The position numbers and the translations under genes were made by a program. A stretch of DNA of 63,113 nt, filler included, from Stramenopiles sp. TOSAG23-3 (lineage: Eukaryota), in NCBI GenBank assembly GCA_900128585.1. It is 42 parts of 42 records of this genome, joined end to end, with 100 filler letters (N's around TTAATTAATTAA, not from the genome) between each part and the next. Parts side by side here need not be neighbours in the genome. Positions count along the whole stretch, not along the records: positions 3,040 to 4,456 come from LT645882.1; positions 4,557 to 5,972 come from LT645883.1; positions 6,073 to 7,488 come from LT645884.1; positions 7,589 to 9,003 come from LT645885.1; positions 9,104 to 10,517 come from LT645886.1; positions 10,618 to 12,031 come from LT645887.1; positions 12,132 to 13,544 come from LT645888.1; positions 13,645 to 15,057 come from LT645889.1; 34 more parts are not named here. One strand, written 5' to 3'. This document shows positions 3,040 through 63,113 of the stretch, one piece after another. Position 1 is the first letter of the stretch. Each line of letters begins with the position of its first letter. The notes under the pieces are model-generated. The model did no database searches. It had not been told where the DNA came from and worked only from the letters and a program-made list of their open reading frames with translations.

Positions 3040-3118
3040 AGGAGATATTGTTCTTGAACTGACACCTTCTTTTTTCTTTAATTTTAATTACTATAAAATA
3101 ACAGCCAATTTTTCTTGT
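3040..3118 (+). repeat. Dispersed inverted-repeat family copy (module A plus arm)
   Basis: TTGTTCTTGAACTGACACCTTCT..AATTTTAATTACTATAAAATAACAGCCAATTTTTCTTG; near-identical to 13645-13715 and to the reverse complement of 55745-55813. Confidence 0.85.
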
Positions 3119-3228
3119 CAATCAATTAATAATAATGTTAAAAACAATGGAGATTCTTAATTTTTTTTTAAAACAATGGAGAAACCCATAAATCGTTTAA
3201 TCGTCCCCCCTCTTTCGTGCTTCAAATA

Positions 3229-4276
3229 TTATTGGCCGTTGCAAATCCAGTCCTCCGTCACCCGTTTGTACTTGATGGTCTGTCTCAAATAAGTATACAT
3301 GACATGGATACTCCCATCCTTTGTCTGCAGCACTGTGGGGTAACTAAACTCGTTGTTATGCTTCTTCTTCTGAAGCTCTTCTGCCGACACGCCATGCTGA
3401 AGGTTCCGTTTGCAAGACCACGACTTGCCTTGGTCTTTGGAAATTCCAATGGCCAGCGGGTCGCGCCCCGACGTCTGGGGGTTGAACACCAATACAATGT
3501 GGCCATTCGTCAGCAAATTGGCCTCGATGCCGGCGTTGTTGTTCGGAAGTTGGGTTGGTTTCGGTTTGTCCCAATGGGACGCTTCGGCATCCTTTCCCTG
3601 GGAGGCATAGATGTGCTTCGCTCGCCTGTCGCGGAAGAAGGTCAACCACGAATTGTTCAAGTGAACCGTCGACGGTTGAACTAAATCGTCGCTCCCCGCC
3701 AAGGGCGTGAACTTCCACCCATCAGCAGAGCCCATGTTTCTNNNNNNNNNNNNNNNNNNNNNNNNNNNNNNNAACGCCGCCGTCGCGGGTGGGAACGATC
3801 CGGTTGCGCGGGAACGCGCCAGGAGCGGTAAGCCACGCTTTCGGCTCTGACCAAGTGTTCCCGAGATCGTCGCTTTCAAGGTGCCATATGGCGGCCCCGC
3901 TCTCTCCACTCTCTGCCTTGGCCTGAGAATGGAACAAGTGCAGCTTTTTGTGGACGGTGTCGTAAAACAAAACAGGGTTTTGGTTCGAGTACCCGTCCCG
4001 CTTCGACAGCGTGGCGGCTTTGGACCACGAGGTCCCGTTCAGCCTTGAAAACACTATGGCGCAACCGGACGCCTCCTCTTTCTCTCCCGAAAACCAAGCA
4101 GCTGCAAGCCGCCCGTCTGGCAAAAGTTCAATGGTCGATGCATGGCTGTCCTTGTAAGGGGGAATCATGTAAGCGCTGAAAGACCCGTCAGATTCTGGTC
4201 GGACCATTCCGTCAAACGCCGGGTGGGCCCTGGCAAAAGGCAACACGCAGGCCAAACAAAGAAGATACCGCAACAT
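3229..4276 (-). CDS. Secreted BNR/Asp-box sialidase-like beta-propeller protein, interrupted by a 31-N scaffold gap at 3742-3772
   Basis: Signal peptide; HASTIELL..AAWFSG; Asp boxes SDDLGNTW and SKDQGKSW; FSYP and HVMYTYLRQTIKY. The two halves appear in different frames either side of the gap. Confidence 0.85.
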
Positions 4277-4858
4277 GCTGGTACTCTATACTGGGTGGGA
4301 ATGGGTGCAAGACTTCTTTGGTTCTACAACTTTAAACGTGCGGGTAATGAAAAGTCAATATTTGAATACATTCTTCTCAGTACCTTTTACAAACCATTCT
4401 TTTCTTTGTCTCAATATAGATATATAGATATAAATATAGATATAGATATATGGAGCNNNNNNNNNNNNNNNNNNNNNNNNNNNNNNNNNNNNNNNNNNNN
4501 TTAATTAATTAANNNNNNNNNNNNNNNNNNNNNNNNNNNNNNNNNNNNNNNNNNNNTTATCACTTGGTAGTAATTCTTCTCATTGGAATATAAATAATTC
4601 CTCAGTGATTGACAATCAACGAAACAAAATAAAAAAATCAAATTAAAACATCAAGATATCATATCTTACGACTAGGAGGGTTGGAACTGAAATCGTAATT
4701 GATATAAAATATAAAAAATGAGAGAGTTTTAAAGCATACTATATTTGTAAAAAACAAAAAAATGGTTTTCTTCTAATGACAGGGGTATATCGATTAGTAA
4801 AACCAAAAGGGAAAAGATAAGTTCGCAGTACATGAAGGAATTGTAAACCTTGAATCTT

Positions 4859-5040
4859 TGTCTAAATCTAGAGTTCAGTTCGCAGGTACATTAATTTTAA
4901 TTTTACTTATTAAATAACAGCCAATTTTCTTGTTTTTCTTCTATATTTTATAATATCTGAGAATCAAGTTTGGATTAGGGTATGAGGAAGCTAAATTTAA
5001 TTACTTACATATAAATAACAGCCAATTTTCTTGTTTTTTT
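4859..5040 (+). repeat. Two copies of the repeat arm, the first preceded by module C (TCTAAATCTAGAGTTCAGTTCGCAG-TACAT)
   Basis: AATAACAGCCAATTTTCTTG at 4913 and 5014; module C also at 22707-22745 and, reverse-complemented, at 58591-58633. Confidence 0.85.
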
Positions 5041-5248
5041 ATCTGAGAAGAATTACATTTATTGTTGGTAACACCCAGAGCTGTTTATTTAGACGAGATT
5101 TAATCTCCTTTTTGAGCAAAAACTTTTGAGGTATTTTTTTAAATAAAAAAATCCAGGAAAACACGGGCACGCTCTCTCCCTGCACCAGACTTATATACAT
5201 GAAGGAGTGGATCAAAACGCATAGGCCCTTTCCCAGCACATCACCATT

Positions 5249-5972
5249 TCAACCTTCGTTTCGGTCGGTTTCTGTGTCGTCCGCGCTAACTCGGGGAATC
5301 TTCTTGGCCCTCGAATCGCACCGCAAGGTCAGCTGCTGAACGAACAGGACCTTTTTGGACTGCAACTTTCCCACGAGCACCCGGTCCTTGTTCGGCAAAA
5401 ACGATTCGTACCGGTCCCGAGGGTGCAAGGAGTGAAAGACAACGTCCGTTGCTTGGGACAGCAGGGAAGCGGGCGAGTGACGCCAGTACAAATCGACGAT
5501 GTCCTTTCCATTGTTGTACACTGTGATGGACACCCCGCGCCAAAGGTCAGACGACACGACGGCAAACACGGAACTTTCGAACAAAAACACGGCATTCTCC
5601 GCGTTCAGCAATTCATGGTGAAACAGCGGTGTCATGGCTTCCGCTTCCTTGACATTCATGGTCTCCTGCTCGACGGTGTCCACGTGCACGGCACGGGAAA
5701 AGTCCGAGCTCTCAGGGTCAACGCTGTAGTCCCCCCCCGCCAGCGTGACCAGGACCGTTTTTTCCCTCCGGTTCAATACGCACGCAAGGCCATGGCGGTC
5801 GCTGCCCGGGCGCCACCACCGTACAATGTCACTGCTGAATTTGGAAAAACAATCTTTGTCCTTTACGACTAGGTTTTTTTGCTTCATGAGGTCTTGTGGG
5901 ATGATCACGGGCAGGTCGATAGCAGTGTAGGCTTTTAAGAACCCTTGCCGAGCGAGGGTCCCCATGTATCCA
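5249..5972 (-). CDS. Hypothetical protein, probably 5' partial
   Basis: 238-aa frame with GC-rich codons reaching close to the contig edge; no family recognised. Confidence 0.6.
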
Positions 5973-6074
5973 NNNNNNNNNNNNNNNNNNNNNNNNNNNN
6001 NNNNNNNNNNNNNNNNTTAATTAATTAANNNNNNNNNNNNNNNNNNNNNNNNNNNNNNNNNNNNNNNNNNNNTG

Positions 6075-7457
6075 ATAGGTTTTCGAGCGTTAGCTTCGGC
6101 CTGCGAAGATTACCTTGCGAGTTTCTCGGACGAAAAATACGACGTGCTGGAGAGCACTTTGATTTACAAGCTGTTCACTGGGAAGGAAGCCGAGGCGGTG
6201 TACTTGGGAAAATGCCTCCACATTAGTCACTTTCGACGTGGGCAAGTGATCGACTTTCGGTTCCAAAAGTGCTTTTCTTTGGTAGTAGAAGGAAAGGGGG
6301 GGGTGAGGGTGGGGAACCTGATAGGGGCAGAGCCGAACAGAGACCCACTAATTGCAGTTTTTGAGGAGGAGGATCACTTTCACAACGATCCAAAAGGAAA
6401 TTCGTACAACGTTGCCATGGAGGAGAACACAACGCTCCTGTGGCTAACCCAGGACAGTTTCAAACGGTTCGCACGGAACAACAGGAAAAAACATTTGGAA
6501 AACAGGCTTCCAGACGCGATGCATGCAATGGGTATGCTCAACATAGAAAACTGTCTTCATCGCGTGCCATTCTTCAAGTCCACCATGTTTGAAATCAACA
6601 TTCCGGTCATTGCAACCATGTGCAAAATAGAGCTGTACCAGAAGGACGATCCGATAGTAAAGCAGGGACTCGACATTGACAGCTTCATGTTCAACGTTTG
6701 CGGATTTTCCAAACTGGGCATCGAAGACGACGGAAAAGAAAACACGTTCAAGGACCGGACCCCATACGATGTGCTGAGCAACTGCGTCGAGATGCCCATG
6801 GATACGATGGAACTCAAGGACAGCCAGATGCCTGAGGAAGAGTACGACGACGAATGGCTCTATCGTTACCAAAACGATACCCTGTTCGGTGCCATGACAC
6901 GCGCAGAGCTTGACACCAAGAAACAGAAGCCGCTGCCCGACCTGTACTCGTACAACACCAGGTCTACTCGGATTCCCTCTCGAATTATTTCAAACTATTT
7001 GGATGTAAACATGAGCGCTAACGTGGGCAGGTCGGGCCCGTCCCGCTTCCATGCGCGGAAGCGGGATGTTTTTCCCGCACACTTGCAGGAGCTGCTTCCC
7101 AGGGAAGATGACCTCGTCACGGAAAACTTTAAAAAAGGGAATTACGAAGGGAGCTGGATGACCCAAGGACGGAAGGGCCGGGTAGCTACAAAGCCATCTG
7201 AACTGAAGAACGCCATGATAGGCCCGGGAAGCCACTTCTACTCACTGGAAATGATAGGGAACTCAGTAAAGAAGAGTCGCTTTTCGCTGCTATCGGTCGA
7301 CTGGTCGCTTTACATACGCTTGCCAAAAAAGCACGTGCAGAATTTTTTAAAGTTGCCAGGGCAACGGGACATCAACTACCGTTATTTTAAAAATTTGCGA
7401 AGGAACGACAACCAGTTTGAGGAGAAATGGAAAAAGATGGAGAGAAAAAAATTGTAG
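6075..7457 (+). CDS. Divergent cyclic-nucleotide-binding domain protein, 5' partial
   Basis: Frame open from the contig start; cNMP-like segments FRRGQVI..FSLVVEGKG and VPFF..YQKDDPIVKQG..IGPGSHF..R. Confidence 0.6.
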   Translation: MGFRALASACEDYLASFSDEKYDVLESTLIYKLFTGKEAEAVYLGKCLHISHFRRGQVIDFRFQKCFSLVVEGKGGVRVGNLIGAEPNRDPLIAVFEEEDHFHNDPKGNSYNVAMEENTTLLWLTQDSFKRFARNNRKKHLENRLPDAMHAMGMLNIENCLHRVPFFKSTMFEINIPVIATMCKIELYQKDDPIVKQGLDIDSFMFNVCGFSKLGIEDDGKENTFKDRTPYDVLSNCVEMPMDTMELKDSQMPEEEYDDEWLYRYQNDTLFGAMTRAELDTKKQKPLPDLYSYNTRSTRIPSRIISNYLDVNMSANVGRSGPSRFHARKRDVFPAHLQELLPREDDLVTENFKKGNYEGSWMTQGRKGRVATKPSELKNAMIGPGSHFYSLEMIGNSVKKSRFSLLSVDWSLYIRLPKKHVQNFLKLPGQRDINYRYFKNLRRNDNQFEEKWKKMERKKL

Positions 7458-7589
7458 TATTAATATACTAAAGCATAAAAAATATAATNNNNNNNNNNNN
7501 NNNNNNNNNNNNNNNNNNNNNNNNNNNNNNNNTTAATTAATTAANNNNNNNNNNNNNNNNNNNNNNNNNNNNNNNNNNNNNNNNNNNNC

Positions 7590-9003
7590 AACGAGGGCAG
7601 CGATGACGACACCGACAGCGATTGCAGCGACGACGGGAACGCCCCCCCGAAGAACAATTGCGACATTCACGGTTGGCGATGGTACAAGGTTGACGACGAG
7701 ATTGTGACCCCGATAGAACCAAATGAGGCCATGGAAGACGCGTGCGGGGGGTCGTGGGGAGACAATTTGGGAAAACCATTCGTCGGATTCAACGAAGGCG
7801 ACGACCCAATATTCGAAGATGAAGATGAAAAAAACGACCTCAAGGCCGTTTGGGGAAACGATTACAACATTAACAGCCGCCCAAGGCTGAGTAACGCGTA
7901 TATGCTTGTGTACATCAATGCAGACGAATGTGAAAGCATTATGAAAGACATTACTGAAAACGATATACCGGAGCATTTGTCGGAGCGATTCCGACAAGAA
8001 GACGCTAAAGCGAAGCGTGGCATGGCATACAAAAACGAAGAAAGCGAGCATTTCCGGATTCGGGTAGTGGACGAAGAAACTGTGCGCAATGTTGACGGTT
8101 CAATGATCACGTACGAACACGACTTTGTGCCTACCGGGACCGGCTTTACGAACTTCGACCCGACTGCACAATCCTACGTACTAGATAAAAATCCTAATCT
8201 GTACGCAACAGCAAAGTGCCCGAAGGGCGACCGGGTGGAGAAGATGTTGAGGACTGGGACGCTGGGAAAACTTTTCAGCGTGCGAACGCGAACCACCATC
8301 TCTGATTTTCACCGCATGCTTTCTTTGCATACAGGTATACCCGTATCAAGGCAACGCCTGTGGATTGTTCAAAGTTACGACCCCCAACATGAACACAGAG
8401 TGTGCCATTCTGTGCAAGATCTAGCTTTGGAGCTTTTAATGCACTCACACATAGCCCGCCTGAAGCGCGCGTGGTCCCGTAAGTTCGACAAACACCGTTC
8501 CCAAGGGGTCAGCGTTAACAACAGCAATATTGACACTGCAATGGAGGCAGGGTACGACCGACACTTGCACTTGCCAGAGGATGCATTCACTAAAGCATGC
8601 ACTCTCGGTCTACCGCAGGGTTACCTAGATGGGGACATTGAATTTTCGAAAATTTATGAAGAAATAAGCAAAGCATGGCACACGGACGTTACACTATGGC
8701 AAGTGCACGAGTACGTTTTCGAAAAGCTAAAACTGGCTTTGCCAAATCACAGGCTTCATGAAAAGATAGCGATACCATCAAATTCCCATAAAATCAAATC
8801 AACCACTGGATACATCCCTGCCAGCGTCAACTCGCCATTCCGGATACCTCCCGTCCTTTCGAAGGAAACTAGCAGAGGGCAAGTGTGTGATAGATCGATG
8901 GAACCGATGTACCATCTAGAATTGTACCTGGAAGAAATTTCTCCCCCTTCCAAGGGTGCCCCGCTGGAACGTGCTGAAAAAAACAGTCTAGTGCACCCGG
9001 CCG
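7590..9003 (+). CDS. USP7/UBP15-like deubiquitinase, end of the catalytic domain plus C-terminal region (internal fragment)
   Basis: WYKVDDEIV..ACGG..SNAYMLVYI..DIPEHLSERF..QRLW, matching USP7-family motifs. Confidence 0.75.
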
Positions 9004-9103
9004 NNNNNNNNNNNNNNNNNNNNNNNNNNNNNNNNNNNNNNNNNNNNTTAATTAATTAANNNNNNNNNNNNNNNNNNNNNNNNNNNNNNNNNNNNNNNNN
9101 NNN

Positions 9104-9532
9104 CACCACGGCCTGGACCCTACTGCCGTTTCGAAGCAAGCTGGACCACCCGTCTACGCTGTCTAAGAAATGCTCCACCCTGTCTAATACTTTGCGCTCC
9201 TTCTGTCCCTGAAAAGACTGCAAATTGAAGTATTTCCACACCCCGTCGCGCTCGGCGGTGTTTTCCGGCGCATCTTCCGTTTGCAGTGCAACGCGCTGGA
9301 ACGCGGCAACTTCCTCGTCCGAAAAAAAATTCTCCATCACAACTATACCGTCGTCACGAAACCGTCTTCGATCCTCCTCGGAGACCTGCCGCGGTCTAGT
9401 GTTACAATCCCCGAACTCACTTGGCGCAGGATGAAAATCTAAGATGTGTCCGCGGGAGTCAGGTGCACACCCATGATCCAACGCCCCCGCACATCCCATT
9501 GCCATGAGCAGGCAAACCCACGCCAGCATCAT
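9104..9532 (-). CDS. Phytanoyl-CoA dioxygenase (PhyH) family protein with signal peptide, 3' partial
   Basis: FRDDGIVVMENFFSDEEV and KYF..LDRVEHF motifs. Confidence 0.7.
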
Positions 9533-10171
9533 CCTGAATTGCGTGAAGAACTCACACTGTATGAAATGAACCTACGCTCTCAACAAATGAACCCAATGAT
9601 AAATGAAACATGAAGTCTGTATCTATTCAAAATCTCTCTGGTGGATTGGTATGATAGATTGCATGTATTAGTTTTTCTTTGATATGTATAGACATTTTAT
9701 ATAGAAGAAGAGTCAATCACTCAAAAAAAACAAAACAAAACAAAAAAAAAAAAACATTTTTTTTTTACTCTAATAATACTCTTCTTCTTATATTACCTGG
9801 TAGGTGGTACCGTACCTGTACCGTACCTGTATACCTGTACCTCATTGGTATGATGTTATTATTCACTCACTCTCACCATCCAACTACGAATATTGTACAT
9901 ATTATTATACGTCGTGTCTTGTATCTTTCCACCCAAAAGAAGAAGAAGAAGAAATGAGAAAACAACACAGAAGACGGACGGACGGACGACAGAAAGAAAT
10001 TCTTGGTAAGAAGTACATTAATTGTCCAGATAATGTGATTCATTAAATGGATGATTTTGTATACAATTTTTAAATGAGGAGAGGGTACAATTGTTTCGGG
10101 AAGGAACAGAAGGAACACTTCCTGTGCCTGTGTGTTTTTGTTTGTGTTTTTGCTGGGACGGAGAGTACAAG

Positions 10172-10517
10172 ATGCGCCGAGCAGTACTGTTTGGGCTGTT
10201 CCTGGTGTTTCAATTGGGGAGGAGCGTTGAGACCATAGTTATAAATCTTGGTGCAGAGAATATAAATTTAGCAGAATCGATCCCCCACGATGAGCTGTGC
10301 GACAGAAAAGGTGCGGACGTGTGTGCAATGGAAAACGGCTCGTTGAGCTTCAACATTTCAACGCTGACGTGCCACATCGCGCCGAGCATTATTCGGCCTT
10401 TGTACTGCAGAAATGCCATGATGAACTTGCTGTCGCACATTACGGCGCTGTTTGAATTCTACCACATTCCGTACTGGATCACGCAGGGAACGTTGCTGGG
10501 TGCGATGCGGGAGCAAG
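10172..10517 (+). CDS. LicD/fukutin-like nucleotidyltransferase-fold protein, 3' partial
   Basis: Signal peptide, then IPYWITQGTLLGAMR; divergent from the PhyH gene on the same contig. Confidence 0.75.
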
Positions 10518-10617
10518 NNNNNNNNNNNNNNNNNNNNNNNNNNNNNNNNNNNNNNNNNNNNTTAATTAATTAANNNNNNNNNNNNNNNNNNNNNNNNNNN
10601 NNNNNNNNNNNNNNNNN

Positions 10618-13644: not shown

Positions 13645-13720
13645 TTGTTCTTGAACTGACACCTTCTTTTTTCTTTAATTTTAATTACTATAAAATAACA
13701 GCCAATTTTTCTTGTTTTTA
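13645..13720 (+). repeat. Dispersed inverted-repeat family copy (module A plus arm)
   Basis: Near-identical to 3048-3118. Confidence 0.85.
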
Positions 13721-13805
13721 AACAAACAAACTAAAATTCAGATTAGAAAGTAAAAAACAAAATACATGTTTTAAATGTAAATTTAAATTAATGTTTAAAA
13801 TAAGT

Positions 13806-19134: not shown

Positions 19135-19161
19135 TTAGTACGTAAGTTTTTCGTATATATA

Positions 19162-22706: not shown

Positions 22707-22787
22707 TAGAATGTCTAAATCTAGATTTCAGTTCGCAGTACATTAATTTTAATTACTTAAATAACAGCCAATTTTCTTGTTTTTTTT
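22707..22787 (+). repeat. Dispersed repeat copy (module C plus arm)
   Basis: GAATGTCTAAATCTAGATTTCAGTTCGCAGTACATTAATTTTAATTACTTAAATAACAGCCAATTTTCTTG. Confidence 0.85.
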
Positions 22788-23237
22788 AATATATAATATG
22801 ACCTGATATATTTACGTCATCCTTCATCTATTAATGTGTCCCTTATTTAAATTAAGAGATAAGTTTTAATAATTTGTGCCCCCGACACCTCAACTCACAA
22901 GGGACAAATTCCTTGACTGATTTACAAGACAGAAAACGAGCGCTTTCAAAACATTTGTGCCGCTGCTTCAAAAATCACACAAAGGTCTGATGTATCTATG
23001 AGCGAGACATTGGGAGAAGAACTTGTTGACTAAGGGTCATTTGACATCGTCGCAAACCCAAATACCCATTCGGATCATGCATGGAGTACATCAGAGGATG
23101 ATAGTCTAGACTAAGTGACAAGATTAAATTGCTTAGTAAAAACACAGGAGCAGAGATACGTTCGCAATTTCTGAACGAAAGTATACATTTAATGGGTAGA
23201 AGGAGCAGATTCACATTTGCTGTACACGAAGAAGATA

Positions 23238-23325
23238 AATTTTAATTACTTAAATAACAGCCATTATTTTGTTTTTTAATTTTAGAAGAGCAAGAAAATT
23301 GGCTGTTATCTAAGTAATTAAAATT
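23238..23325. repeat. Palindromic (arm-spacer-inverted arm) copy of the repeat, MITE-like
   Basis: 23238-23263 and 23300-23325 are 26-nt inverted repeats with one mismatch. Confidence 0.85.
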
Positions 23326-24213
23326 AATGTTTTTTAATTTGTGTCTACTTTCTGTGCACAGATAGGTTTAATCTATAAGAATGAATTTCGATCTAAATCA
23401 TAGGCAACTTTATGGATCGTTTCAATGGCTGTGCCAGGATTTTCGTTTTCCCCCAACAATACGGTGGTTTAGTTTTCGCTTTATTGGAAATAGTTACTTC
23501 ATCAGTCAAAGAAGAAGTAAAATTGTGATGGGGAGAGATTGTTAATCATAATTGAGAGTTAAATACTTACGTAGTTAAATAAAGTTTTGGTAGATAGAGT
23601 TAATATCGTATCTAAAGTAGGCTTAAGGGGAGTTCGGCTTCCTTAAGATTATTGTGCAGAATGTGCTGAGTTTAATGTTGAAATTATGAGAATGTTATTT
23701 GGTTATAATAAAAGTTATTATTATGTAGTATTTAATTTATCTTCTTCTTCTTCAACAGTTTCTTTCGTTTTGCGAACATCCTTCTTCGCACACACGTTCG
23801 GTCTGGACTATGAGTACCATATCCGACGGGCGGTACGTGCGTTGGTACGTACGGTACATGTTCGCTTCTTACGAATGTATCGCCTACTATTCTCATATGT
23901 TGGAGAGATTAAGCTCCTGCGAATGGCTGTGTTCACTCACAGCTTTGGTAGAACTAATAGATCCGGTAGTTTTCCCTTTGTTTAAGGGGCCGGTTTTCGC
24001 GCAATGGTTGGCTCTCGTTCTTCGGCGGTGCAGTATATCTTCAAAGAAATGTTAATTAATTTTCGGTGTAAAAGCGTAGGAAGTAAATTTCAACATAAAC
24101 TTACAACAAAAAANNNNNNNNNNNNNNNNNNNNNNNNNNNNNNNNNNNNNNNNNNNNTTAATTAATTAANNNNNNNNNNNNNNNNNNNNNNNNNNNNNNN
24201 NNNNNNNNNNNNN

Positions 24214-30137: not shown

Positions 30138-30458
30138 NNNNNNNNNNNNNNNNNNNNNNNNNNNNNNNNNNNNNNNNNNNNTTAATTAATTAANNNNNNN
30201 NNNNNNNNNNNNNNNNNNNNNNNNNNNNNNNNNNNNNGTTTCGTGGTCGTATACACATACAGATGTAAGTGTACCTTCTGGGAATCCTAAACGGCTAGGC
30301 CGGTCAGCGATTTCCATGACATATTCGTATGTCACTCCCAAGTTCTGGTCAAGATTCCAACTGGCAAGTAAACAGCGGCATAAATGCTTTTGAAGGGCTC
30401 GTTGTCTGTTGTACTGCTCTATGAAATAATGATCGGCATTTAAAAGAAATAATTTTTT

Positions 30459-31643
30459 TTATGCAATCTCCTCCAGTGCTATTGCATGGACAGCTTGACT
30501 AGACTTTCGTCGGCGTAAATACAAGATGCACGTGACTGCTACAATCAGGCAAGTCCCCGTAGCGAGCACTATCAGCGACAAAACAAAGGTTACCTCGCCA
30601 CAATCACAACGCACGGAACTGTCATGCCCGACTATGCTGTCTTCATACCCGGTCATATTGCCATTATTTTTTGCGCAAATGGCAGTCGTTTCGCATTGGC
30701 CCCTTTGCACTTGGTATACCATGGCAGACAGGCAGACATTAGCTGAAAGCAAATAAACAGACGTCCTGAATATATTCAAATGGCTGACTAGACAAGGCTG
30801 GATCACGTGATTAGAAATTGCCAGTAGTGTACAAATAATAAATTGTGGAACGAGAACAGCTGCCCATTCATCCTGGTAAAAAATCGAAAATCCTATCATA
30901 AGCAGCTCGGCTTGATGTTCCATAATTAAAAACGACTGGTCGAATTTAATGTCCAACGCTTTATTGTTGAATTGGAAGTTTGGGGCAAGCAAAGTGGCCA
31001 GCGGGTAAAACCCGACCAGAGCCATCGCTGCCGCAACCATGTAAAATATATGCGTTGGATGCGACAGATTAAAACACTCCAAGGGCTCCGAGCTTTCATC
31101 ATCCGCAGAGAGAGTGTATTTAATGTAATCCCAGGATTCAGTATCGTCCACCTTACAAGAAAAAACACTCACAAGCATAAACATTATACCAAAGTATAAG
31201 TAGTCATTAACAGCATTGAGAACAAAGTTGTATATCCCGTCGCGCGAGCAGCATTTTTTTATTTCTTGGCCGTTTTCATCGAGACCAAACGTTCCCTTCT
31301 TAAGGGCTCGAAGAGCCTTAATAGAATAAAACGGATAGATAAACGCAATACAGACGGACACCCAAAAGGAAATATGAAAGGAGTTTTTTATTGGCAACCT
31401 TAACGTTGGCAACCTGAAGAGCGGTATCAAAATACTTGGGCCTATGTTCACGTTTTCCACGGGAAAATGGTTGGAAGCAATGCTTAAGTATTGGTACAGC
31501 GTTACCAGCAGACCTACATGAAATGTTCTAACGTTGTCCGTGACTTTCCAATCTACCTTCACCTCATTTGGTTCAGAATTTATCCGGGCATCGTTCTCAT
31601 GCCTCAAGACCTCAGCTTTCAAAACATTTAGTACCGAATTTGA
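30459..31643 (-). CDS. Multi-pass membrane protein, 5' partial
   Basis: About 7-8 hydrophobic helices with Cys-containing loops. Confidence 0.75.
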   Translation of the reverse strand, partial: SNSVLNVLKAEVLRHENDARINSEPNEVKVDWKVTDNVRTFHVGLLVTLYQYLSIASNHFPVENVNIGPSILIPLFRLPTLRLPIKNSFHISFWVSVCIAFIYPFYSIKALRALKKGTFGLDENGQEIKKCCSRDGIYNFVLNAVNDYLYFGIMFMLVSVFSCKVDDTESWDYIKYTLSADDESSEPLECFNLSHPTHIFYMVAAAMALVGFYPLATLLAPNFQFNNKALDIKFDQSFLIMEHQAELLMIGFSIFYQDEWAAVLVPQFIICTLLAISNHVIQPCLVSHLNIFRTSVYLLSANVCLSAMVYQVQRGQCETTAICAKNNGNMTGYEDSIVGHDSSVRCDCGEVTFVLSLIVLATGTCLIVAVTCILYLRRRKSSQAVHAIALEEIA

Positions 31644-31769: not shown

Positions 31770-31802
<33 letters not shown>

Positions 31803-34753: not shown

Positions 34754-36158
34754 ACAAGGTCGATATTTACCAAATATTTGCAGCAGGACATGGAACCCGT
34801 CAAGTACGGGCAATGCTGGGTCTTCGCTGCTATTTTAACGTCAACTTTGAGGTATTTGGGGATCCCTTCGCGCCCAGTTTCAAACTTTCGCTCTGCTCAC
34901 GATACGCCTAGTGTCCATGGACATAAACGGAAAAGGGCGATCTATGACAGCGTCATCGTGGCCGAAAAAGAATCAGTGTGGAATTTCCATGTCTGGGTAG
35001 ACGCGTGGATAAAACGGGACGACATAACGCCTGAAACTGGGTACGGTTGGAACGCGTTGGACGCCACCCCGCAGGAGAAAAGTTTTGGGGAATACCAAAT
35101 GGGGCCAGCATTTGTGCCGTACGTGAAACAGCACAAAGAGATACGCAATGAAAAAAATTACGACGCAGATTTTGTACTTGGAGAAGTAAACAGTATTCAT
35201 CGGTATCCAAACCGGGACGATCGCTCGGACATTGGTCGCTGCATGATAACAAAACAGCTTTACCCGTCCAATACAGGAAAAGACATCATCAAGGAGTACA
35301 AAATGTGCCCTTCTGCTTTCTACGAAGTGGTTGATGGGAAATGTGGTTTCTACACTGGAGACGGTAAGTTTTCCTTGACATACGGAACGAAAGGGGAAAG
35401 GTCTGCTGTAGAAGCGTTGGACTACAACGGTCGCATGGGCGTTTTCAAAGTCGTGCCGCTGCTGGTGCACTCAAGGTCTAAGGTGAAAGTCAATCTCAAC
35501 GGTCGAGCGGAAATCGTGCGAATGAAAGATTTATCGGCAGGCGCGAAACGCGAGGCGTCCCAAGACAGCAGCAGCAGCGATTCTTTACTGGAACTGAACG
35601 ATGCCAAAGAGGAGGACGACGGCGACAGTGACAATCAAGAAACTAAAGAAACCGGGGCGAAAAAGAAGAAAACTGGCTTAATTGGCAACGTGCGCAATTT
35701 GGTTAGGAAGGGCATCCGCAAAATCAGGACAATGTTCACGGGGTCTGTGTCGCGCGCGAACAAAGGTTTCCATGGTTTAAAAATGCTCATCAGGACAACG
35801 AGAAAGCGAGCCCATCTGTGCAAGGATTGCTTTTCAATTTCCCAAAGGAAAGGCGGACCATTGTTCGTCAATGAGCCACTTGCTCTGCAAATCCATAGAA
35901 AGGGGCACCATGTGACGAAAGGGCAGGACTTTGTAGGCACTTTGTATTTCGAAATTGTGGCCAACAACGGGTTCAATGTGGAAGGGGGAACGTTCCACCG
36001 AGAAAAGAACATAAAGCTCTTAAAGGGCAAAGAGAACACAGAAATCACCATCGACACAGAGGAGTTTCAAGACCATTTAAGCAAGGCGCTATCTCTCAGG
36101 GTTTCGTTGCGGGTGCTGAGTTCTGACGGCAAACTGGTCGATTACGACGAAGAGCAGC
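34754..36158 (+). CDS. Animal-type protein-glutamine gamma-glutamyltransferase (transglutaminase), internal fragment
   Basis: PVKYGQCWVFA (catalytic Cys), LGIPSRPVSNFRSAHD, SVWNFHVW (His), GWNALDATPQE (Asp), YDADFVLGEVN. Confidence 0.93.
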
Positions 36159-36258
36159 NNNNNNNNNNNNNNNNNNNNNNNNNNNNNNNNNNNNNNNNNN
36201 NNTTAATTAATTAANNNNNNNNNNNNNNNNNNNNNNNNNNNNNNNNNNNNNNNNNNNN

Positions 36259-55625: not shown

Positions 55626-55744
55626 CTAGAAAAAAGAGGCTGGCNNNNNNNNNNNNNNNNNNNNNNNNNNNNNNNNNNNNNNNNNNNNTTAATTAATTAA
55701 NNNNNNNNNNNNNNNNNNNNNNNNNNNNNNNNNNNNNNNNNNNN

Positions 55745-56027
55745 GCTGTTATTTTTTATAGTAATTAAAATTAAAGAAAAAAAGAAGGTGTCAGTTCAAG
55801 AACAATGTCTCCTCCTATTGCTGCAGATCCTCCCCAAGTTCTGGTCAAGATTCCAATTGATTGGTCTTAAAAGTACACAGCGGCATAAATTTAAATTTAA
55901 TTTACTTATAAATAACAGCCAATTTTCTTGTTTTTGATTTTAAGAGGACGAGAAAATAATGTCCTGTCTAAGAATAAAAACAAATTATATTTTAATTACT
56001 TAAATAACAGCCAATTTTCTTGTTTTT
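55745..56027. mobile_element. Composite MITE-like cluster: inverted arm, module A, module B, arm, degenerate inverted arm, arm
   Basis: GCTGTTAT..TAATTAAAATT at 55745-55772; AATAACAGCCAATTTTCTTG at 55911 and 56003; internal modules recur on other contigs. Confidence 0.6.
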
Positions 56028-56049
56028 AATACTATTACCACACTGGCCC

Positions 56050-57138
56050 CTATCTTTCGTTTTGTGGTACTCCTGGCGAATCTGGGATTGCAACAACTAA
56101 GTCTTTCACCCCCCGTAAAACGCTATGCAAGTCTTCCTCTGGGTCTTCTGAAGTATCGACAGCTGCGCCCACACGGTGCTCTGTACCCATAACATTTAGG
56201 CTCTCAATTGCGGAGTACAGCTCGGCGTCTATGTCTCCATAATCGCGAGTCATGGCAGTGCCAGATAACCTGTCGGCGCCAAGGTCGAGTCCGTCATAAT
56301 AATCTCCCCCTGCCAAATGATCTGTCGGTGCGTTCGGTGGGTCCATAACCACATCATCATTTTCAACACCATATTCTACTGCCTTCTCGATTTGATCGGG
56401 GCCTATGTTCCTGGGCGGGGCACCCGATTCTTTAGAAAGTGATTTGTCGGTGTTTTCGGAGATTATTGATTCTTCAGATTCCAAATCCGATTCGGATACG
56501 ATACCATCCCCTTCGTCTATCTCTGAGTCGATATTGGCGGCAAAAGACTTCTCCAGACTTTCTTTCACGTTCTGTAAAATTTGGAGTTCTACTGCGTATC
56601 CGTCACGCTGTTGTTCTGCACTATCCAACAATTCTTTGAGTGCTATTTTCTCCGCTTGTAGATGTGCTATAATACTCTGCAATTTTGATTTTTCTGCCAT
56701 TCGCTCGTTTGCCATTTGCTGCAGGGCTGTGTGCAGGGTATATTGCTGGGCGTGTACAAGGCTGTTTTTTAAATCGAATATTTCTTGGACCATGTGCTTG
56801 CTCTCCCCAGCGGCATAGTCGATGGCCTCCTGCGATTGGGAGGAAACTCGGCGAATGGTGCCATGGAGGTTTTTTACAGACTCCCTTAGGCTCCTGTTCT
56901 CATCGGCTTGTTTTAAAGACCGCGCTTCCAACGTTGCTGAAACACCCTTCTCTTCCTCGTGCAATAATTTTAATGCTTCGTGTTCTCCTTTTTGCTTGGC
57001 AAGCGATTCTGATTGAGTTTTGATGGTTCTCTCTGATTCCATTTTTTCCATCTTGCATTTTGCCTTTAAAGCTTCGTACTTGTCAAAGTAGTCCGCGTTC
57101 AATTTCTTTAAGGTGGCTATTTCTTGTTCCTGCCGTTT
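56050..57138 (-). CDS. Coiled-coil protein with an acidic tail, 5' partial
   Basis: About 360 codons open from the contig edge. Confidence 0.75.
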   Translation of the reverse strand, partial: KRQEQEIATLKKLNADYFDKYEALKAKCKMEKMESERTIKTQSESLAKQKGEHEALKLLHEEEKGVSATLEARSLKQADENRSLRESVKNLHGTIRRVSSQSQEAIDYAAGESKHMVQEIFDLKNSLVHAQQYTLHTALQQMANERMAEKSKLQSIIAHLQAEKIALKELLDSAEQQRDGYAVELQILQNVKESLEKSFAANIDSEIDEGDGIVSESDLESEESIISENTDKSLSKESGAPPRNIGPDQIEKAVEYGVENDDVVMDPPNAPTDHLAGGDYYDGLDLGADRLSGTAMTRDYGDIDAELYSAIESLNVMGTEHRVGAAVDTSEDPEEDLHSVLRGVKDLVVAIPDSPGVPQNER

Positions 57139-57241
57139 ANNNNNNNNNNNNNNNNNNNNNNNNNNNNNNNNNNNNNNNNNNNNTTAATTAATTAANNNNN
57201 NNNNNNNNNNNNNNNNNNNNNNNNNNNNNNNNNNNNNNNCA

Positions 57242-58282
57242 GGCGCACTGACGGGACTTCGAAACGCGGACCTGCAACCTTTAGCAAGGCGAATCTCAGA
57301 ACAGGACTGGAACGGCACTCCGAAGCGCCACATAGCAGAGCTGCACCAACACCCGGCCCTACACGGTTTAGTGAGGATCATATACAAAATCGCAACGGCC
57401 CAGGTCCCCAGGGGAACGGACACGAACGTCAACGCAGTCATAAGGAGCGCAAAACTCATAATGATAAAAAAGAAGCCCAGCGGTCAACGACCCATTGCAA
57501 TCGGAGAAACCCTCCGACGCATCGCAGGACGATTCGTATCACAATGGCTGAAAGAGGAAGCCATAAAAGCACTCGGACCCTCGCAGACAGCGCTACAGTC
57601 GAACGGTACAACCAAGGTCGTCTTCGCGGTCAGAAACACATTGGAAAGACACCCTCACTTCGTTGGAATATTCCCGGACGCCAAGAATGCATTTAACACC
57701 CTGAGTAGGAAGTCGGCCATATCCCAAATGGGGGAATCAATACCAGGGTACATCAAATACCTCCACTTAACCTACGGAAACGACGCGGATATCATCATCG
57801 CGCAGGCCGGAGACGGAGTCCCAGTCCTTGACAGGGCCACCTCCAAAACGGCCAATATCAGATGGATCAAGTCACGACAAGGCACACAGCAAGGGGACCC
57901 AATCGGCATGACAATGTATTCATGCGGCCAGAAAAAGGCCCTACGCCTTACAATCGAATTCATGAACCACCTAGCGCGTAAGTGGCGGAGGGACCACGGA
58001 CCCCACACCAGGAAAGGCAAGGAAGCCACCGACTGGCTCCTAATCGCTTATGCCGACGACTTAGTGGTAGTCGCACCCCCAGTCATAGCAGTTCTAATAT
58101 ACTGCAGGTACGCCTACCTGAACTGGCTATACAACAGTTCGGTAGTGAAATCACAGTACAGGACGGCAGATCCGGACAATCTAAAAACAAATACAGTCGC
58201 TGCCCCCATACGGAATTCACCGATCGCCAAGACGCAGAGAAACTCGAGCCTCAGTCTAGCTCTCAGTCAAGCGAACCCATAG
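57242..58282 (+). mobile_element. Non-LTR retrotransposon reverse transcriptase, CRE-clade-like, truncated
   Basis: GALTGLR, KKPSGQRPIAIGETLRRI, DAKNAFN, GTQQGDPIG, YADDL; A/C-rich strand unlike host genes; stops about 70 codons after YADD. Confidence 0.88.
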
Positions 58283-58563
58283 ATTACGGAACACAGCCCG
58301 AGGTGGAGATACGTGATTATGAGGATTATGATTGGGTTCAGAATCGTATGATAACATATCATAGGAATGATAATGATGGTCTCGACCGATTTTGATTTTT
58401 ATGATTTTTATTAGTCATAGACACGAATTGGCCTTGCAATTGAGATAATCTTGAGAGTCTTAAAACATACTATATAATTAGTGTTTTTTTATATAATTTG
58501 TTCACATAGTACTAAGTAACATTCTTCGAACGATACGACTTACTTGAATATTAAAAACACATG

Positions 58564-58633
58564 TTAAATAACAGCCAATTTTCTTGCTTTAAATTAATGT
58601 ACTGCGAACTGAACTCTAAATTTAGACATTCAA
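58564..58633. repeat. Repeat arm plus inverted module C
   Basis: TTAAATAACAGCCAATTTTCTTG, then the reverse complement of GAATGTCTAAATTTAGAGTTCAGTTCGCAGTACATTAATTT. Confidence 0.85.
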
Positions 58634-58795
58634 NNNNNNNNNNNNNNNNNNNNNNNNNNNNNNNNNNNNNNNNNNNNTTAATTAATTAANNNNNNNNNNN
58701 NNNNNNNNNNNNNNNNNNNNNNNNNNNNNNNNNTACTTAAATTTTTAAGCCGTTAATAACCAAAGAGCCCGCATCCCTCCCTCGCGCTTTTATCC

Positions 58796-59848
58796 TCACC
58801 GATGGCCCTTGATCTTTGCGAAAGATTCGAGCAAGTCTTGGTACGTAAAATGTTGACTGCATGCCCCGTGCTGTTGCACACAAAGTGTGCCGGCAATGCA
58901 GCCAATCTTCAAACACCGCTCAATATCGACGGGACCATTGCCTTCCTGTAACAAAAATTCGTGCAAAAAGGCTGCGGTAAAACTGTCCCCCGCACCTGTA
59001 GGGTCAACGACCGTCTCCAGGGCGATCCCTTCAAAGCGCCAACGCTCTTCCCCCTTTCCAGCAACTGCTCCATCTTTCCCCAGCGTCACGACAACCAAAC
59101 AACGAGGGAAAGACTTGGTCAATAAGTTCAAGGCAACTATTGGGTCATTGCCGGCCTTTTCGCTGCACACGGCCTCGCAAATTCCGCACACTTCCGTTTC
59201 GTTCGGCAACACAATGTCGACGTATGGCAAAATATTCTGAATGCACTGGTTCCCGTCCCATCGTTTCGTCGCATCAAAGTTGGTATCCAGCGATATTTTT
59301 AGACCGTTTCCGTGCCTTTCTTTCAAGCCCCTCAGCATCGTTTCTAACCCTGGGGTTTGTAAATTTTTGCAGCAGTAGTACCCGCCAATGTGGAGGTGCT
59401 TCAACGCCCCACCTTGATGGGCTACCCCGTCTATGTTGCGCTGTATCAAGCTGGGGGTTAGGAATTTGTTCGACGAGTTGCACGATACAAATGCCCTATC
59501 CGCCCCCCCTGTAATGACGATGCAGACCGCTTGGTGCTCATTTTTGATAACGTTTACACAGCTCGTGTCGACAAAGCCCTCCTTCTCAAGGATACTCGCA
59601 AACATGTTCCCAAATGTATCGTCGGCTATGGCTATTGACAGGTACGGACGTTTGAGACCCATACTGCACTGCAACGCAGCAAATCTTCTGGCGGCGTTGC
59701 AGACACTCCCCCCAGCAAAAGTAGAAATGGAGGCGACGTCCCGGTCTTCCCCCCACGCCGGCAAACTTTGTACCTGGCTCGTTTGTACGTCTACGAAGGC
59801 ATCCCCCAGAAAGAAGACAACCCCTCGCTCTGCCGAAGAAAGTTGCAT
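58796..59848 (-). CDS. PfkB/ribokinase-family carbohydrate kinase
   Basis: GGSVCNAA, DDTFG, SLDTN, PNETE, VTLGKDGA, DPTGAGDSF; start placed at the first in-frame ATG. Confidence 0.92.
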   Translation of the reverse strand: MQLSSAERGVVFFLGDAFVDVQTSQVQSLPAWGEDRDVASISTFAGGSVCNAARRFAALQCSMGLKRPYLSIAIADDTFGNMFASILEKEGFVDTSCVNVIKNEHQAVCIVITGGADRAFVSCNSSNKFLTPSLIQRNIDGVAHQGGALKHLHIGGYYCCKNLQTPGLETMLRGLKERHGNGLKISLDTNFDATKRWDGNQCIQNILPYVDIVLPNETEVCGICEAVCSEKAGNDPIVALNLLTKSFPRCLVVVTLGKDGAVAGKGEERWRFEGIALETVVDPTGAGDSFTAAFLHEFLLQEGNGPVDIERCLKIGCIAGTLCVQQHGACSQHFTYQDLLESFAKIKGHR

Positions 59849-60421
59849 AACTAATTCTGACGAACTGTAACTGGGAATTTTATTCAAACGCGATCCTTTG
59901 TTAGCTCATATTTACAGATTCTCTTGCTTTTTTCTAATTAGTTTATTTAGATGTGTAATTGTGTATTTTGTTTTATTTTGTTTTAGGTTGGATTGATGAT
60001 ATCAATGTTTAGTTTTAGTTTTTTTTTTATTAAAATAAATATTAGTCTCGACGAGGAGTGATGAAGTCCGATTTTATTCAGGTGTGGGTCCTCCTATCAG
60101 GATTCTTTACCTTTGGCCAATCTAGGANNNNNNNNNNNNNNNNNNNNNNNNNNNNNNNNNNNNNNNNNNNNTTAATTAATTAANNNNNNNNNNNNNNNNN
60201 NNNNNNNNNNNNNNNNNNNNNNNNNNNTCTTCTTTTCTTCCTTCTTCTTCTTCTCATCTCACGCACCACCACTTCTTGGCATTTATTGAGATGATTAGGA
60301 CAGGTTATATACATACATATACATATATATACGCATAAAAAAGAAAGGATATGTTTGTCTATAAACATGAATTGGTTGCACATGAACGTATCATCATATT
60401 GATATATAAGGACATCCAACT

Positions 60422-61495
60422 ATGTTCCATAGAACATTGTTCAACCGGTTGCGTGCGACACCGAACTCGAAATGGTGTTCGCACGTTTCAACCTCCGAGT
60501 TGAGCACGATCGGCTCGCGCTCTCGGGGATCTGTTTCGAAGAAGAAGCCGCCAGACACAAAATTTGTACAGAAAAAAAGATCCGGGCGAACGCGATGCTT
60601 CAGCGTTCACAGCAATGGTTCGTTGTGTAAACTATCCATTGCGGGCATACAGCAGAAGAAGCTCGACGAGAAATACATATCGATGGTCACTGCCTACGAC
60701 TACACCTCGGCCCTCCTCGCGGACCGCGCCGGCTTTGACATTTTGCTGGTCGGAGACTCCCTTGGGATGGTCCAGCTCGGCTACGACGGGACGGAGAAGG
60801 TCACCATGGACGACATGCTGCACCACTGCAAGGCCGTGTCCCGGACCTCGAAGAACTCGTTCCTTATCGGCGACCTGCCGTTTGGAAGCTACTTGAACGT
60901 TGACGATGCGGTCCAGAACGCCTGCCGCCTCGTGAAGGAGGGTGGGATGGACGCCGTGAAGCTCGAAGGGGGCACCCGCGTCGAACGCAGCATTGCTGCT
61001 ATCGTCGATTCGGGCATCCCCGTCCAAGGGCACATTGGGCTGACCCCTCAGACGGCGACACAGCTCGGCGGGTTCAAGGTCCAGGGAAAGACTGCAGAAG
61101 CGGCTGTGGGGCTGTACGAGGATGCAATGGCGTTGCAAAAAGCCGGCTGCTTCTCCATCGTCCTGGAGTGCGTGCCAGAGCGCGTTGCGACGGAGATCAC
61201 CCAATCGCTGGACATTCCCACAATTGGGATTGGTGCTGGCCGTGGAACGAACGGCCAAGTCCAGGTATTCCACGACGTCATTGGCATGTACGACCGCCTT
61301 CAACCGAAGTTCGCAAAGCAGTACGTGAACACGTCCGACATAATCTGTGACGCGCTGTCCTCGTACCGAGAGGAAATTGAAACCGCCCGATTCCCAGACG
61401 AAAGCCACGTGTTCAAAATCAAGGACACCCAATTCGAAAGTTTCCGGTATGCCGCCGGGCTTACCGTGTTCGAGCATGATGGAAACATGTACTAG
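60422..61495 (+). CDS. panB: 3-methyl-2-oxobutanoate hydroxymethyltransferase with a probable mitochondrial presequence, complete
   Basis: MVTAYDY, LVGDSLGMV, GDLPFGSY, VKLEGG, GHIGLTPQ, IGIGAG, GQVQVFHD; Arg/Ser-rich N-terminus. Confidence 0.97.
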   Translation: MFHRTLFNRLRATPNSKWCSHVSTSELSTIGSRSRGSVSKKKPPDTKFVQKKRSGRTRCFSVHSNGSLCKLSIAGIQQKKLDEKYISMVTAYDYTSALLADRAGFDILLVGDSLGMVQLGYDGTEKVTMDDMLHHCKAVSRTSKNSFLIGDLPFGSYLNVDDAVQNACRLVKEGGMDAVKLEGGTRVERSIAAIVDSGIPVQGHIGLTPQTATQLGGFKVQGKTAEAAVGLYEDAMALQKAGCFSIVLECVPERVATEITQSLDIPTIGIGAGRGTNGQVQVFHDVIGMYDRLQPKFAKQYVNTSDIICDALSSYREEIETARFPDESHVFKIKDTQFESFRYAAGLTVFEHDGNMY

Positions 61496-61761
61496 TAATT
61501 AGAAAACGGTTTGGTACACATATTCTCATACACATCCACGCCTTGTTCCCTTTGGCATGAACAATTAGAAAGAGACGACGACTGCTACTAATAATAATAT
61601 TTAAAAAAAACAATTTATTATNNNNNNNNNNNNNNNNNNNNNNNNNNNNNNNNNNNNNNNNNNNNTTAATTAATTAANNNNNNNNNNNNNNNNNNNNNNN
61701 NNNNNNNNNNNNNNNNNNNNNTTCTTCTGTTTCCTTGTTCATCGTCATATTCATCATCATC

Positions 61762-63054
61762 ATGGGCGGGGAAATCATCGACCAAAGGAAATTCTACTCG
61801 TCGATCGGGCGGCAAGCGTCGTCGTTGAAGAAGTCGATGCCCTCGGTCGGGTTCCCCCAGGGGCCTGCAAGGGAAAACGACTCGATCAAGCCCGGGCGCG
61901 TGGGCCCCGGGTCGTACGCGATGCGGTCGTCCATGGGGCGCCAGGTCCTGTCCACGAACAAGCAGGTGATCGCGGCAAAGTTCATGAAAGGGAAACGGCC
62001 GGAACCAAAGGCGACGAACAACGACGTTGGGCCGTCGCAGTACGACCAGGAAAAAATGGACACCGCGATGAAGCTTAGAATATCGACCGTGCGGAGGGCC
62101 CCCACGATCAAGTTCGGCACGGAGAAGGCCCGCCCCGACTACGGCTTTGCGAGCGTGACGAAGAACGTGGGCAAGTTGAAGCTCGTCCCCTCGATAGGGA
62201 CGCAGGTCCTGAGCCACAGCAGGTCCGCCCCGCGGGTGATGATGGCCAGCCGGGTGAAACTCGTCGGCGACCGCGCCGAGCCGGGCCGCATCGGCCCGGG
62301 GCCGTGCTACAAGCTCCCCGGGTCCACCGGCCCGCAAGTAGAGTCCATGCGAGCGTCCCAGTCCGGCATCGCGTTCGGGAGCGCGCCGAGGGGGGAACTG
62401 TCCAAGGACGCGAAGGACGCCCCGGGGCCAGGGGCCTACACGAACCCGACGTCGATTGGCACGCAGGTGAGCTCGACCCGGCGGACCCAGCCCGCCCCGA
62501 CGATTGCCGGGCGGGAACTCTTCGGGTCGATGATACAGAACCCGTACGCGGCAAAGTACGAGCCCGGGCCCGGGCACTACGCGGTCCACAACGCCCAGTA
62601 CCGGATCAACGGGCACAAGAATGCGCCGAACATTACCATGGGGACGAGGTGGTGGCAAAGCAAGGCGCCGAACCGATCCGGCCCAGGCCCAGGGTCGTAC
62701 AAGCTGCCCCAGGCCGCGGGAAAGCAAATAGAGAGTAAAAAGCGCTCTTCGACTGGGGTGGCCTTTGGAAAGGCATCGCAGCGCCCGAACGTTCGAGAGA
62801 ACACCGACGGCATTGGCCCAGGGGAATACGTCTTGCCCTCCACGATCGGACGGCAAAAGCTGTCCACCGTACGGTCGGAGCCCGCGATTGGCTTTTGTAA
62901 AGACAAACAAAGGCCCGACTACAGCAAGGACGGGAACGCCTACGTGCCAGGACCCGGCCAATACAAATATTCCGTCCAGAAGTGTCCTGTTTACAAACGT
63001 GCCCCGATAGTTAGCTTGTCCAGTAGAACCAAATTCGGCAGCGTCTACGGGTAA
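61762..63054 (+). CDS. Sperm-tail PG-rich repeat protein (STPG/ODF3/SHIPPO-like), flagellar
   Basis: Repeated PGPGxY/GPGxY motifs separated by S..S.P...F segments. Confidence 0.88.
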   Translation: MGGEIIDQRKFYSSIGRQASSLKKSMPSVGFPQGPARENDSIKPGRVGPGSYAMRSSMGRQVLSTNKQVIAAKFMKGKRPEPKATNNDVGPSQYDQEKMDTAMKLRISTVRRAPTIKFGTEKARPDYGFASVTKNVGKLKLVPSIGTQVLSHSRSAPRVMMASRVKLVGDRAEPGRIGPGPCYKLPGSTGPQVESMRASQSGIAFGSAPRGELSKDAKDAPGPGAYTNPTSIGTQVSSTRRTQPAPTIAGRELFGSMIQNPYAAKYEPGPGHYAVHNAQYRINGHKNAPNITMGTRWWQSKAPNRSGPGPGSYKLPQAAGKQIESKKRSSTGVAFGKASQRPNVRENTDGIGPGEYVLPSTIGRQKLSTVRSEPAIGFCKDKQRPDYSKDGNAYVPGPGQYKYSVQKCPVYKRAPIVSLSSRTKFGSVYG

Positions 63055-63113
63055 TAATTCAAGAATCTTGTGTTTTAGGAGGAAAGAATAAAAACCTAAA
63101 TTATGGCTGTTAT

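Follow-up and report, generated by a model that had tools for sequence, protein, structure and literature searches.

An AT-rich repeat dispersed behind protein genes of Stramenopiles sp. TOSAG23-3 as the very probable 3′ terminus of a retrotransposon with a predicted R2-type endonuclease fold

A short AT-rich repeat dispersed through the 28.4-Mb assembly of Stramenopiles sp. TOSAG23-3 (GCA_900128585.1) is very probably the shared 3′ terminus of a retrotransposon lacking long terminal repeats (non-LTR retrotransposon), or long interspersed nuclear element (LINE), whose open reading frame (ORF) is predicted to adopt an R2-type restriction-like-endonuclease fold and whose 5′-truncated stubs lie behind genes, likely through a preference exercised at insertion. 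The repeat was studied in a stretch of 63,113 nucleotides (the window), consisting of 42 short contigs of approximately 1.4 kb each, joined by fillers and drawn from the short-contig end of the assembly. More than 1,100 copies of the element are present, mostly tiny and 5′-truncated, and these are found on either strand and almost solely in the spacers behind protein genes. The sequencing runs in which this DNA occurs are marine metagenomes and one coded organism; judging from these labels and gene content, the host is an uncultured marine protist.

The forward core of the repeat, AATAACAGCCA, is exact at positions 3097, 4913, 5014, 13694, 22760, 23253, 55911, 56003 and 58567 of the window, whilst the reverse core, TGGCTGTTA, is found at 23300 and 63104, and a clipped reverse core begins a contig at 55745. 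All 12 cores listed in the original prediction are therefore present, and they are spread over seven of the 42 contigs (contigs 3, 4, 10, 16, 38, 39 and 42). The high copy number that it had proposed was borne out by a genome-wide scan, in which an exact 21-mer was retrieved 1,143 times (553 plus 590) and its reversed control not once. An Rfam search of the window returned no match. Many contigs break within the repeat and the window represents the short-contig end of the assembly, as might be expected of a library adapter, contaminant or assembly artefact; however, long contigs also hold the repeat in their interior, with subtypes that have diverged and with duplicated target sites, and it was retrieved from at least 129 stretches of metagenome contigs in public data and, at high depth, from two runs of DNA and one of RNA in two other studies, all of which renders such an origin exceedingly improbable.

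The copies have in common a 3′ terminus of the form …CAGCCAATTTTCTTG, followed by approximately four to five T residues. Upstream of the core the body is of one of several related types (A, B, C and X), downstream of it only the T run is shared, and the 3′ flanks have nothing in common beyond approximately T5-AA. Whilst the 3′ end is fixed the 5′ end is ragged, with a median traceable length of 44.5 nt and 35 of 50 copies measuring 60 nt or less in 30 whole contigs, traceable length being a lower bound that depends on the library. Some copies, such as those at loci L114 and L127, exceed 1.5 kb. L127 encodes, in one piece, a region homologous to amino acids 606-978 of P0006, a Ser/Asp-rich tail, a stop codon, an untranslated region (UTR) and the core; the same ORF order was seen in L135 and L137, L114 spans the interval from a CCHC knuckle to the core, and the long copies as a group carry an ORF region homologous to amino acids 606-1030. 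P0006 is a database protein of 1,087 amino acids that combines a reverse transcriptase (RT) and a CCHC knuckle with a QPD motif in a single ORF, and is 84% identical to the RT of this genome (L122) over 512 amino acids and 35% identical to L114 over 200 amino acids. The RT lies upstream of the endonuclease within one ORF in P0006 and in G000:C791, a member of a sister lineage; for the core-bearing lineage this arrangement is indicated by homology only, the stretches upstream of three long copies containing host genes and no RT.

Motifs of a CCHC knuckle followed by a PD-(D/E)xK-type endonuclease region were recognised in both L114 and P0006. A structure model of the L114 ORF built from a 68-row alignment (predicted local distance difference test score, pLDDT, 76; a four-row model with a pLDDT of 29 was set aside) found its best match, among 48,161 chains, in residues 1215-1390 of R2Tg (Z 8.9, root mean square deviation 3.6, 167 residues aligned), and the top three rows of a Foldseek search with the same model were R2 proteins (E 0.05-0.08). 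A Pfam search of the L114 ORF gave no match and a search of the ESM Atlas retrieved unnamed clusters only. The fold, the motifs and the location after the RT are in agreement, though with moderate scores. The element very probably belongs to the restriction-like-endonuclease group of non-LTR retrotransposons.

Further marks of retrotransposition were evident at the insertion sites. Flanking direct repeats of at least 11 nt were found for 19 of 114 copies in the G000 loci (200 shuffles: mean 4.2, maximum 9) and for 30 of 106 copies in a set of metagenome loci (shuffled mean 3.8, maximum 10); these target duplications were mostly 11-17 nt in length and differed in sequence at each site. A run of four to five T residues followed CTTG in 62 of 106 copies, and an A run in five of 106. 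In several copies this T4 was missing from the upstream duplicate, so that the T residues were supplied by the element. A filled and an empty site were also recovered: L251 carries a 21-nt stub within a 17-nt duplication, L235 lacks it, and the flanks of the two are 99% identical. When reads were mapped on L033, none of the joints listed skipped the duplication-flanked copy near position 2373. The site at L092 (G000:C6582) has received two insertions in succession, which have left a 13-nt duplicated sequence in three copies. The locus L027:1280-1530 holds a 24-nt stub and a 230-nt copy, with their 3′ ends inverted relative to each other, within a single 12-nt target duplication; priming from both ends, which this locus had suggested, was dropped, since head-to-head pairs show no enrichment (8 of 36) and the case is a single one. 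L190 and L237, which come from two public assemblies, agree over a gene and over LINE body for 190 nt, after which the sequences diverge wholly, owing either to a mis-join in the repeat or to a rearrangement between copies.

The original prediction had described an inverted-repeat family, possibly of the miniature inverted-repeat transposable element (MITE) type, positioned in 3′ flanks. The inverted pairs at 23253/23300 and 55745/55911 are in line with a MITE or other DNA transposon bounded by 35-nt terminal inverted repeats, yet each proved to be two separate copies, and amongst 36 pairs of neighbouring cores within 400 nt, eight were head-to-head, seven tail-to-tail and 21 tandem, an arrangement that matches independent insertions of random strand. 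The family is indeed high-copy, mobile and confined to 3′ flanks; the inverted-repeat description could not be retained, there being no paired ends and no constant interior, whereas single copies have their own site-specific duplications, mostly of 11-17 nt, a fixed 3′ and a ragged 5′ end, and in long copies an endonuclease ORF runs on into the repeat. We consider a DNA transposon highly improbable.

The location of the copies relative to genes was assessed on the whole contigs C1-C30 (563 kb), on which a hexamer model called 245 gene pieces and 207 spacers, approximately 70% of the sequence (390 of 563 kb) being predicted as coding. Open frames of 3,286-4,167 codons run without a break at G000:C29:2-12505, C11:6246-18392, C9:3-9980 and C23:1195-11055, in keeping with a nearly intron-free genome, and the genes of the window are likewise mostly long uninterrupted ORFs. 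An apparent inverted gene duplication on C4, comprising two 402-codon frames, was dropped as it gave no blast match. Of 66 cores in C1-C30 (reversed control, 1), 63 were situated in spacers and three beyond the last gene of C11. Core-bearing spacers numbered 24 of 76 convergent, 11 of 70 tandem and one of 61 divergent (Fisher p=2.5e-6), despite an AT fraction of 0.66-0.67 in all three types and twice the bases in divergent spacers, and 59 of the 63 spacer cores were closer to a stop than to a start codon, compared with 39% of spacer bases. When nine family motifs were used, 33 of the 76 convergent, 15 tandem and two divergent spacers were positive (reversed control: 3, 1 and 3, respectively). 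A second set comprised 79 metagenome loci, distinct from those of C1-C30; these do not amount to an independent organism, as four are at least 99.7% identical to the G000 loci examined and some overlap mutually. Amongst them, 52 were two-sided (43 convergent, 9 tandem and 0 divergent), 23 had one neighbour, three had none and one lay in a called ORF, with the nearest gene end being a stop in 74 of 75 cases. The median location was approximately 130 nt past the stop codon. Placement just 3′ of genes, as first noticed in the window, is strongly upheld in both sets of loci.

Such placement could arise without any preference if the same retrotransposon inserted at random into AT-rich DNA and selection cleared coding and promoter DNA, aided by re-insertion into its own AT-rich tails. 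The compactness of the genome is in favour of this explanation, as are the common nested clusters of copies and the fact that only standing copies are seen, and PMC6101501 describes selection as acting strongly against insertions where genomes are gene-dense. It would, however, require an approximately 50- to 100-fold purge of 25-60-nt stubs from divergent spacers that are 1 kb long and rich in microsatellites. A different repeat, with inverted ends 200-350 nt apart, served as a control and gave 18 matches at 15 places (L152-L169, e.g. G000:C16:9134-9358 and C22:5405); its eight two-sided places were 0 convergent, three divergent and five tandem, and five of six one-sided places faced a gene start, such that it lies mostly on the promoter side of genes. 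Promoter-side spacers can therefore retain insertions several times longer than the stubs, and the difference in convergent placement (0 of 8 versus 43 of 52 for the element) is marked (Fisher p=1e-5). Nor does sequence supply explain placement behind genes: the density of TTTTAA in convergent spacers that lack a core exceeds that in divergent spacers by a factor of only 1.5. Since the control repeat is kept on the promoter side, targeting, in which the site is chosen at insertion, is moderately favoured over selection alone, and random insertion followed by selection is retained as a possible but less likely account.

Several observations weigh against the retrotransposon interpretation or its targeted form. 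All core-bearing copies examined begin downstream of the RT and none reaches it, so that linkage of this lineage to an RT rests on homology to P0006, and the RT present in the window (57240-58150) belongs to the sister lineage with its different 3′ end. The structural scores are modest, the Foldseek E values being no better than 0.05-0.08 and the Z of 8.9 lying slightly over the usual background of 7-8 for the tool; comparison of the endonuclease region with that of the nearest RT relatives by blastp and hhalign was not significant, the CCHC part reaching E 0.02-0.16. No duplication of at least 11 nt accompanies 95 of 114 and 76 of 106 copies, some of the duplications counted are repeats of the element's own sequence, and at a few letters the empty allele L235 departs from what an empty site should read. 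All copies seen are standing ones, with no new insertion amongst them, and because copies nest within older copies the copy counts are inflated, spacer counts being less affected. Genes were called with a hexamer model of our own, which seems to have miscalled a few tandem spacers, and the control repeat, with only 15 places, may hold a preference of its own.

The orientation of the copies bears on a further explanation, that the motif is, or became, a host 3′-end or termination signal, similar to repetitive extragenic palindromic (REP) sequences or the hairpin rule. In the window, five genes out of five have TGGCTGTTA on their mRNA strand, with gaps from the stop codon to the nearest 9-mer core of 121 nt (BNR/sialidase-like gene), 224 nt (ORF 5249), 101 nt (THUMP gene), 36 nt (ORF 56050) and 49 nt (STPG); as the mRNA strand reading is TGGCTGTTAT, the element is antisense to the gene. 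In convergent spacers the copy also faces the nearer gene (58:34, p=0.016), and one RNA-run contig passes from a gene into the tail (2377-3085 of L033), though RNA-run contigs cannot show strand or ends. The single orientation holds in the window and is not a general rule, as orientation in tandem spacers was 12:10 (9:4 and 3:6; p=0.83). A shared termination signal is further contradicted by the 52 of 76 convergent spacers that lack a core, the site-specific duplications and the filled and empty site, leaving this part of the original prediction very improbable. We attribute the 58:34 skew instead to geometry, in that the body of a copy shifts its 3′ end toward the gene it faces, and on short contigs there is likely a second bias, whereby the contig breaks in the body and a co-oriented copy loses its core; an example of such a core-less, co-oriented copy is present in the window at 30238-30432, 27 nt past a stop codon. 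The five-of-five orientation likely arose from these two effects together. Priming by the poly(A) tail of mRNA was also rejected, since under it every copy in a tandem spacer should lie antisense, against the 12:10 found.

From established non-LTR biology, we infer a sequence of steps by which the stubs could be formed. The endonuclease would nick AT-rich DNA, the 3′ end released in this way, in many cases with terminal A residues, would pair with the short U tail of the element RNA, reverse transcription would stop early, at a median of approximately 45 nt, and a second nick 11-17 nt away would give rise to the target duplication. What steers the element may be a termination factor or, at terminators, open chromatin or supercoiling. 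The enzymology, U-tail priming, current activity and choice of site at insertion are all conditional in this scheme. For the full proposal, namely a LINE with a restriction-like endonuclease and no fixed target sequence that is directed to the zone in which transcription of protein genes terminates, is primed by oligo-U and has rebuilt a large share of host gene 3′ flanks from its own tail, we consider the chances to be even.

Amongst known systems, R2 (R2Tg, 9dou; R2Bm, 8ibw and 8gh6) is the best structural match and has the same succession of an RT, a CCHC knuckle and a restriction-like endonuclease. R2 inserts at one site in ribosomal DNA, whereas the element occupies more than 1,000 unrelated sites, its copies lying between protein genes with none of the ribosomal DNA insertions of the R2 clade encountered, and its tail is oligo-T; a search of the PDB with P0006 gave no match to R2 by sequence. 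A precise 3′ and variable 5′ boundary, as found here, is described for R2 and Utopia in PMC4640811. The CRE clade (CRE1/2, SLACS, CZAR, MoTeR, FoTeR and Cnl1) is characterised, in PMC12857005, by the motif order CCHC-H(N/D)…E…(R/K)(P/A)D, which the element matches loosely with C-x8-C-x8-H-x3-C-x9-HN followed by QAD or QPD, the R of RHN being replaced by P and the position of the second acidic residue being uncertain. CRE elements target spliced-leader arrays or telomere repeats, whereas the element has no repeated target, as seen from its T5-AA flanks and site-specific duplications. The nearest RT relatives (25-33% identity) presumably carry CRE-like motifs, and no named CRE sequence was found among the RT relatives retrieved by database searches. 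Target-primed reverse transcription of L1 generates 5′-truncated copies and variable target duplications and involves pairing of tail to target, all of which resemble the element; L1 is nonetheless a mirror image, its poly(A) being primed by target T residues as opposed to the T4-5 of the element, and its endonuclease is of another class.

NeSL and Utopia also encode a restriction-like endonuclease and some carry a Ulp1-like protease (PMC4640811). That protease is N-terminal, whereas the sister lineage has a weak Ulp1-like Peptidase_C48 match after the endonuclease (Pfam E 0.09-0.14, below the cut-off), and NeSL and Utopia target U2 or spliced-leader genes, unlike the element. Its want of a fixed target also sets the element apart from CRE, R2, R4 and NeSL, which are mostly target-specific according to PMC4640811, where HERO is noted to hold many non-specific elements. 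In being placed by genes and not by a fixed sequence, it resembles TRE3 of Dictyostelium, which inserts approximately 100 bp downstream of tRNA genes (PMC6101501), S. pombe Tf1 and Ty1/Ty3; however, TRE3 uses Pol III genes and Tf1 Pol II promoters, the element the 3′ side of protein genes, and targeting in these systems was shown by experiment, that of the element being deduced from standing copies. The passages of PMC6101501 on position-specific elements list tRNA genes, Pol II promoters and heterochromatin, and do not name protein-gene 3′ ends. The literature searched, which did not cover Repbase, held no description of this family or of LINE targeting to protein-gene 3′ ends; a prior description is possible.

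Within the window, copies were delineated as follows. The 3′ end of a subtype C copy (body, core and tail) lies at 3040..3118 (+), where the contig breaks in the body. The second core-bearing contig opens with a core-less 3′-UTR fragment of a related, B/D-like subtype at 4557..4760 (+; end approximate, 34 blastn matches among collected loci, D2 motif at 4724), followed by two 5′-truncated stubs, one of subtype A at 4773..4937 (+; core 4913) and one of subtype B at 4952..5041 (+; core 5014), the latter lying 224 nt beyond the stop codon of ORF 5249..5965(-). Two further 3′ ends on contigs that break in the body are of subtype C at 13645..13722 (+), 101 nt past the stop of the THUMP gene, and of subtype A at 22707..22793 (+). 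The longest core-bearing copy in the window, of subtype X and approximately 400 nt, at 22879..23277 (+), comprises the last ORF codons, 3′ UTR, core and T tail, with a tblastn match to the ORF tail of the element at 22907-23111 and 55 matches genome-wide. It stands tail-to-tail with a second stub at 23291..23330 (-), the two together forming the 23253/23300 'inverted repeat', and another dispersed repeat is found beside them at 23357-23495, with seven blast matches among collected loci, often adjoining LINE copies. The copy at 30238..30432 (-), overlooked by the original prediction, has a C-related body and its contig ends before any core; it is co-oriented with ORF 30459..31184(-) and begins approximately 27 nt beyond the stop codon of that gene.

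A subtype C copy at 55745..55889 (-), with its 3′ end clipped by the contig edge and an approximate boundary, is head-to-head with a short stub at 55890..55936 (+; core 55911, boundaries approximate), and a further short stub at 55988..56028 (+; core 56003) lies 36 nt beyond the stop codon of ORF 56050..57051(-). The sister lineage contributes an RT fragment at 57240..58150 (+; subtype D end, Pfam RVT_1 E=9.6e-8), 98% identical to G000:C301 and 74% to P0006, in which an internal deletion joins the RT to its own 3′ part, and C-terminal codons, 3′ UTR and a T-rich end (…CATACTATATAATTAG plus a T run) at 58143..58502 (+; 46 genome matches). This different T-rich 3′ tail is common to the sister lineage copies at window 57240-58502, L171 (G000:C77:270-3590) and L097:2093-3373, and L171 connects the CATACTATATAATTAG-type end to the endonuclease region. 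A minimal stub at 58564..58590 (+; core 58567) abuts a fragment of subtype A body that lies on the other strand at 58591..58633 (-; motif at 58596), and a variant 3′ end at 63090..63113 (-; boundary approximate), 49 nt past the stop of the STPG/SHIPPO gene, is broken inside by the contig edge. A Pfam search of the window ORFs found BNR_2, THUMP and SHIPPO-rpt, and no match for ORFs 5249 and 56050. An ORF at 34790-36214 (+) encodes what we take to be an animal-type transglutaminase core with a GQCWVFAA motif.

The element is mobile and ordinary in its class, and is unusual in its T tail, its extreme truncation and its near-total confinement to gene 3′ flanks. Were selection alone to account for this placement, the element would be a new LINE family of ordinary kind, with the T tail as its unusual feature. 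The sites used by position-specific retroelements known so far are tRNA genes, promoters, heterochromatin or repeated sequences; a LINE directed to the 3′ side of protein genes, if true, would constitute another safe-harbour strategy and would hint that integration is tied to transcription termination. Placement 'behind the gene' by an R2-type enzyme would also be of interest as R2 proteins are under development for gene insertion (PMC13580325). For the plankton itself, the stubs form a visible part of gene 3′ flanks, with motifs in 33 of 76 convergent spacers, and provide presence/absence markers.

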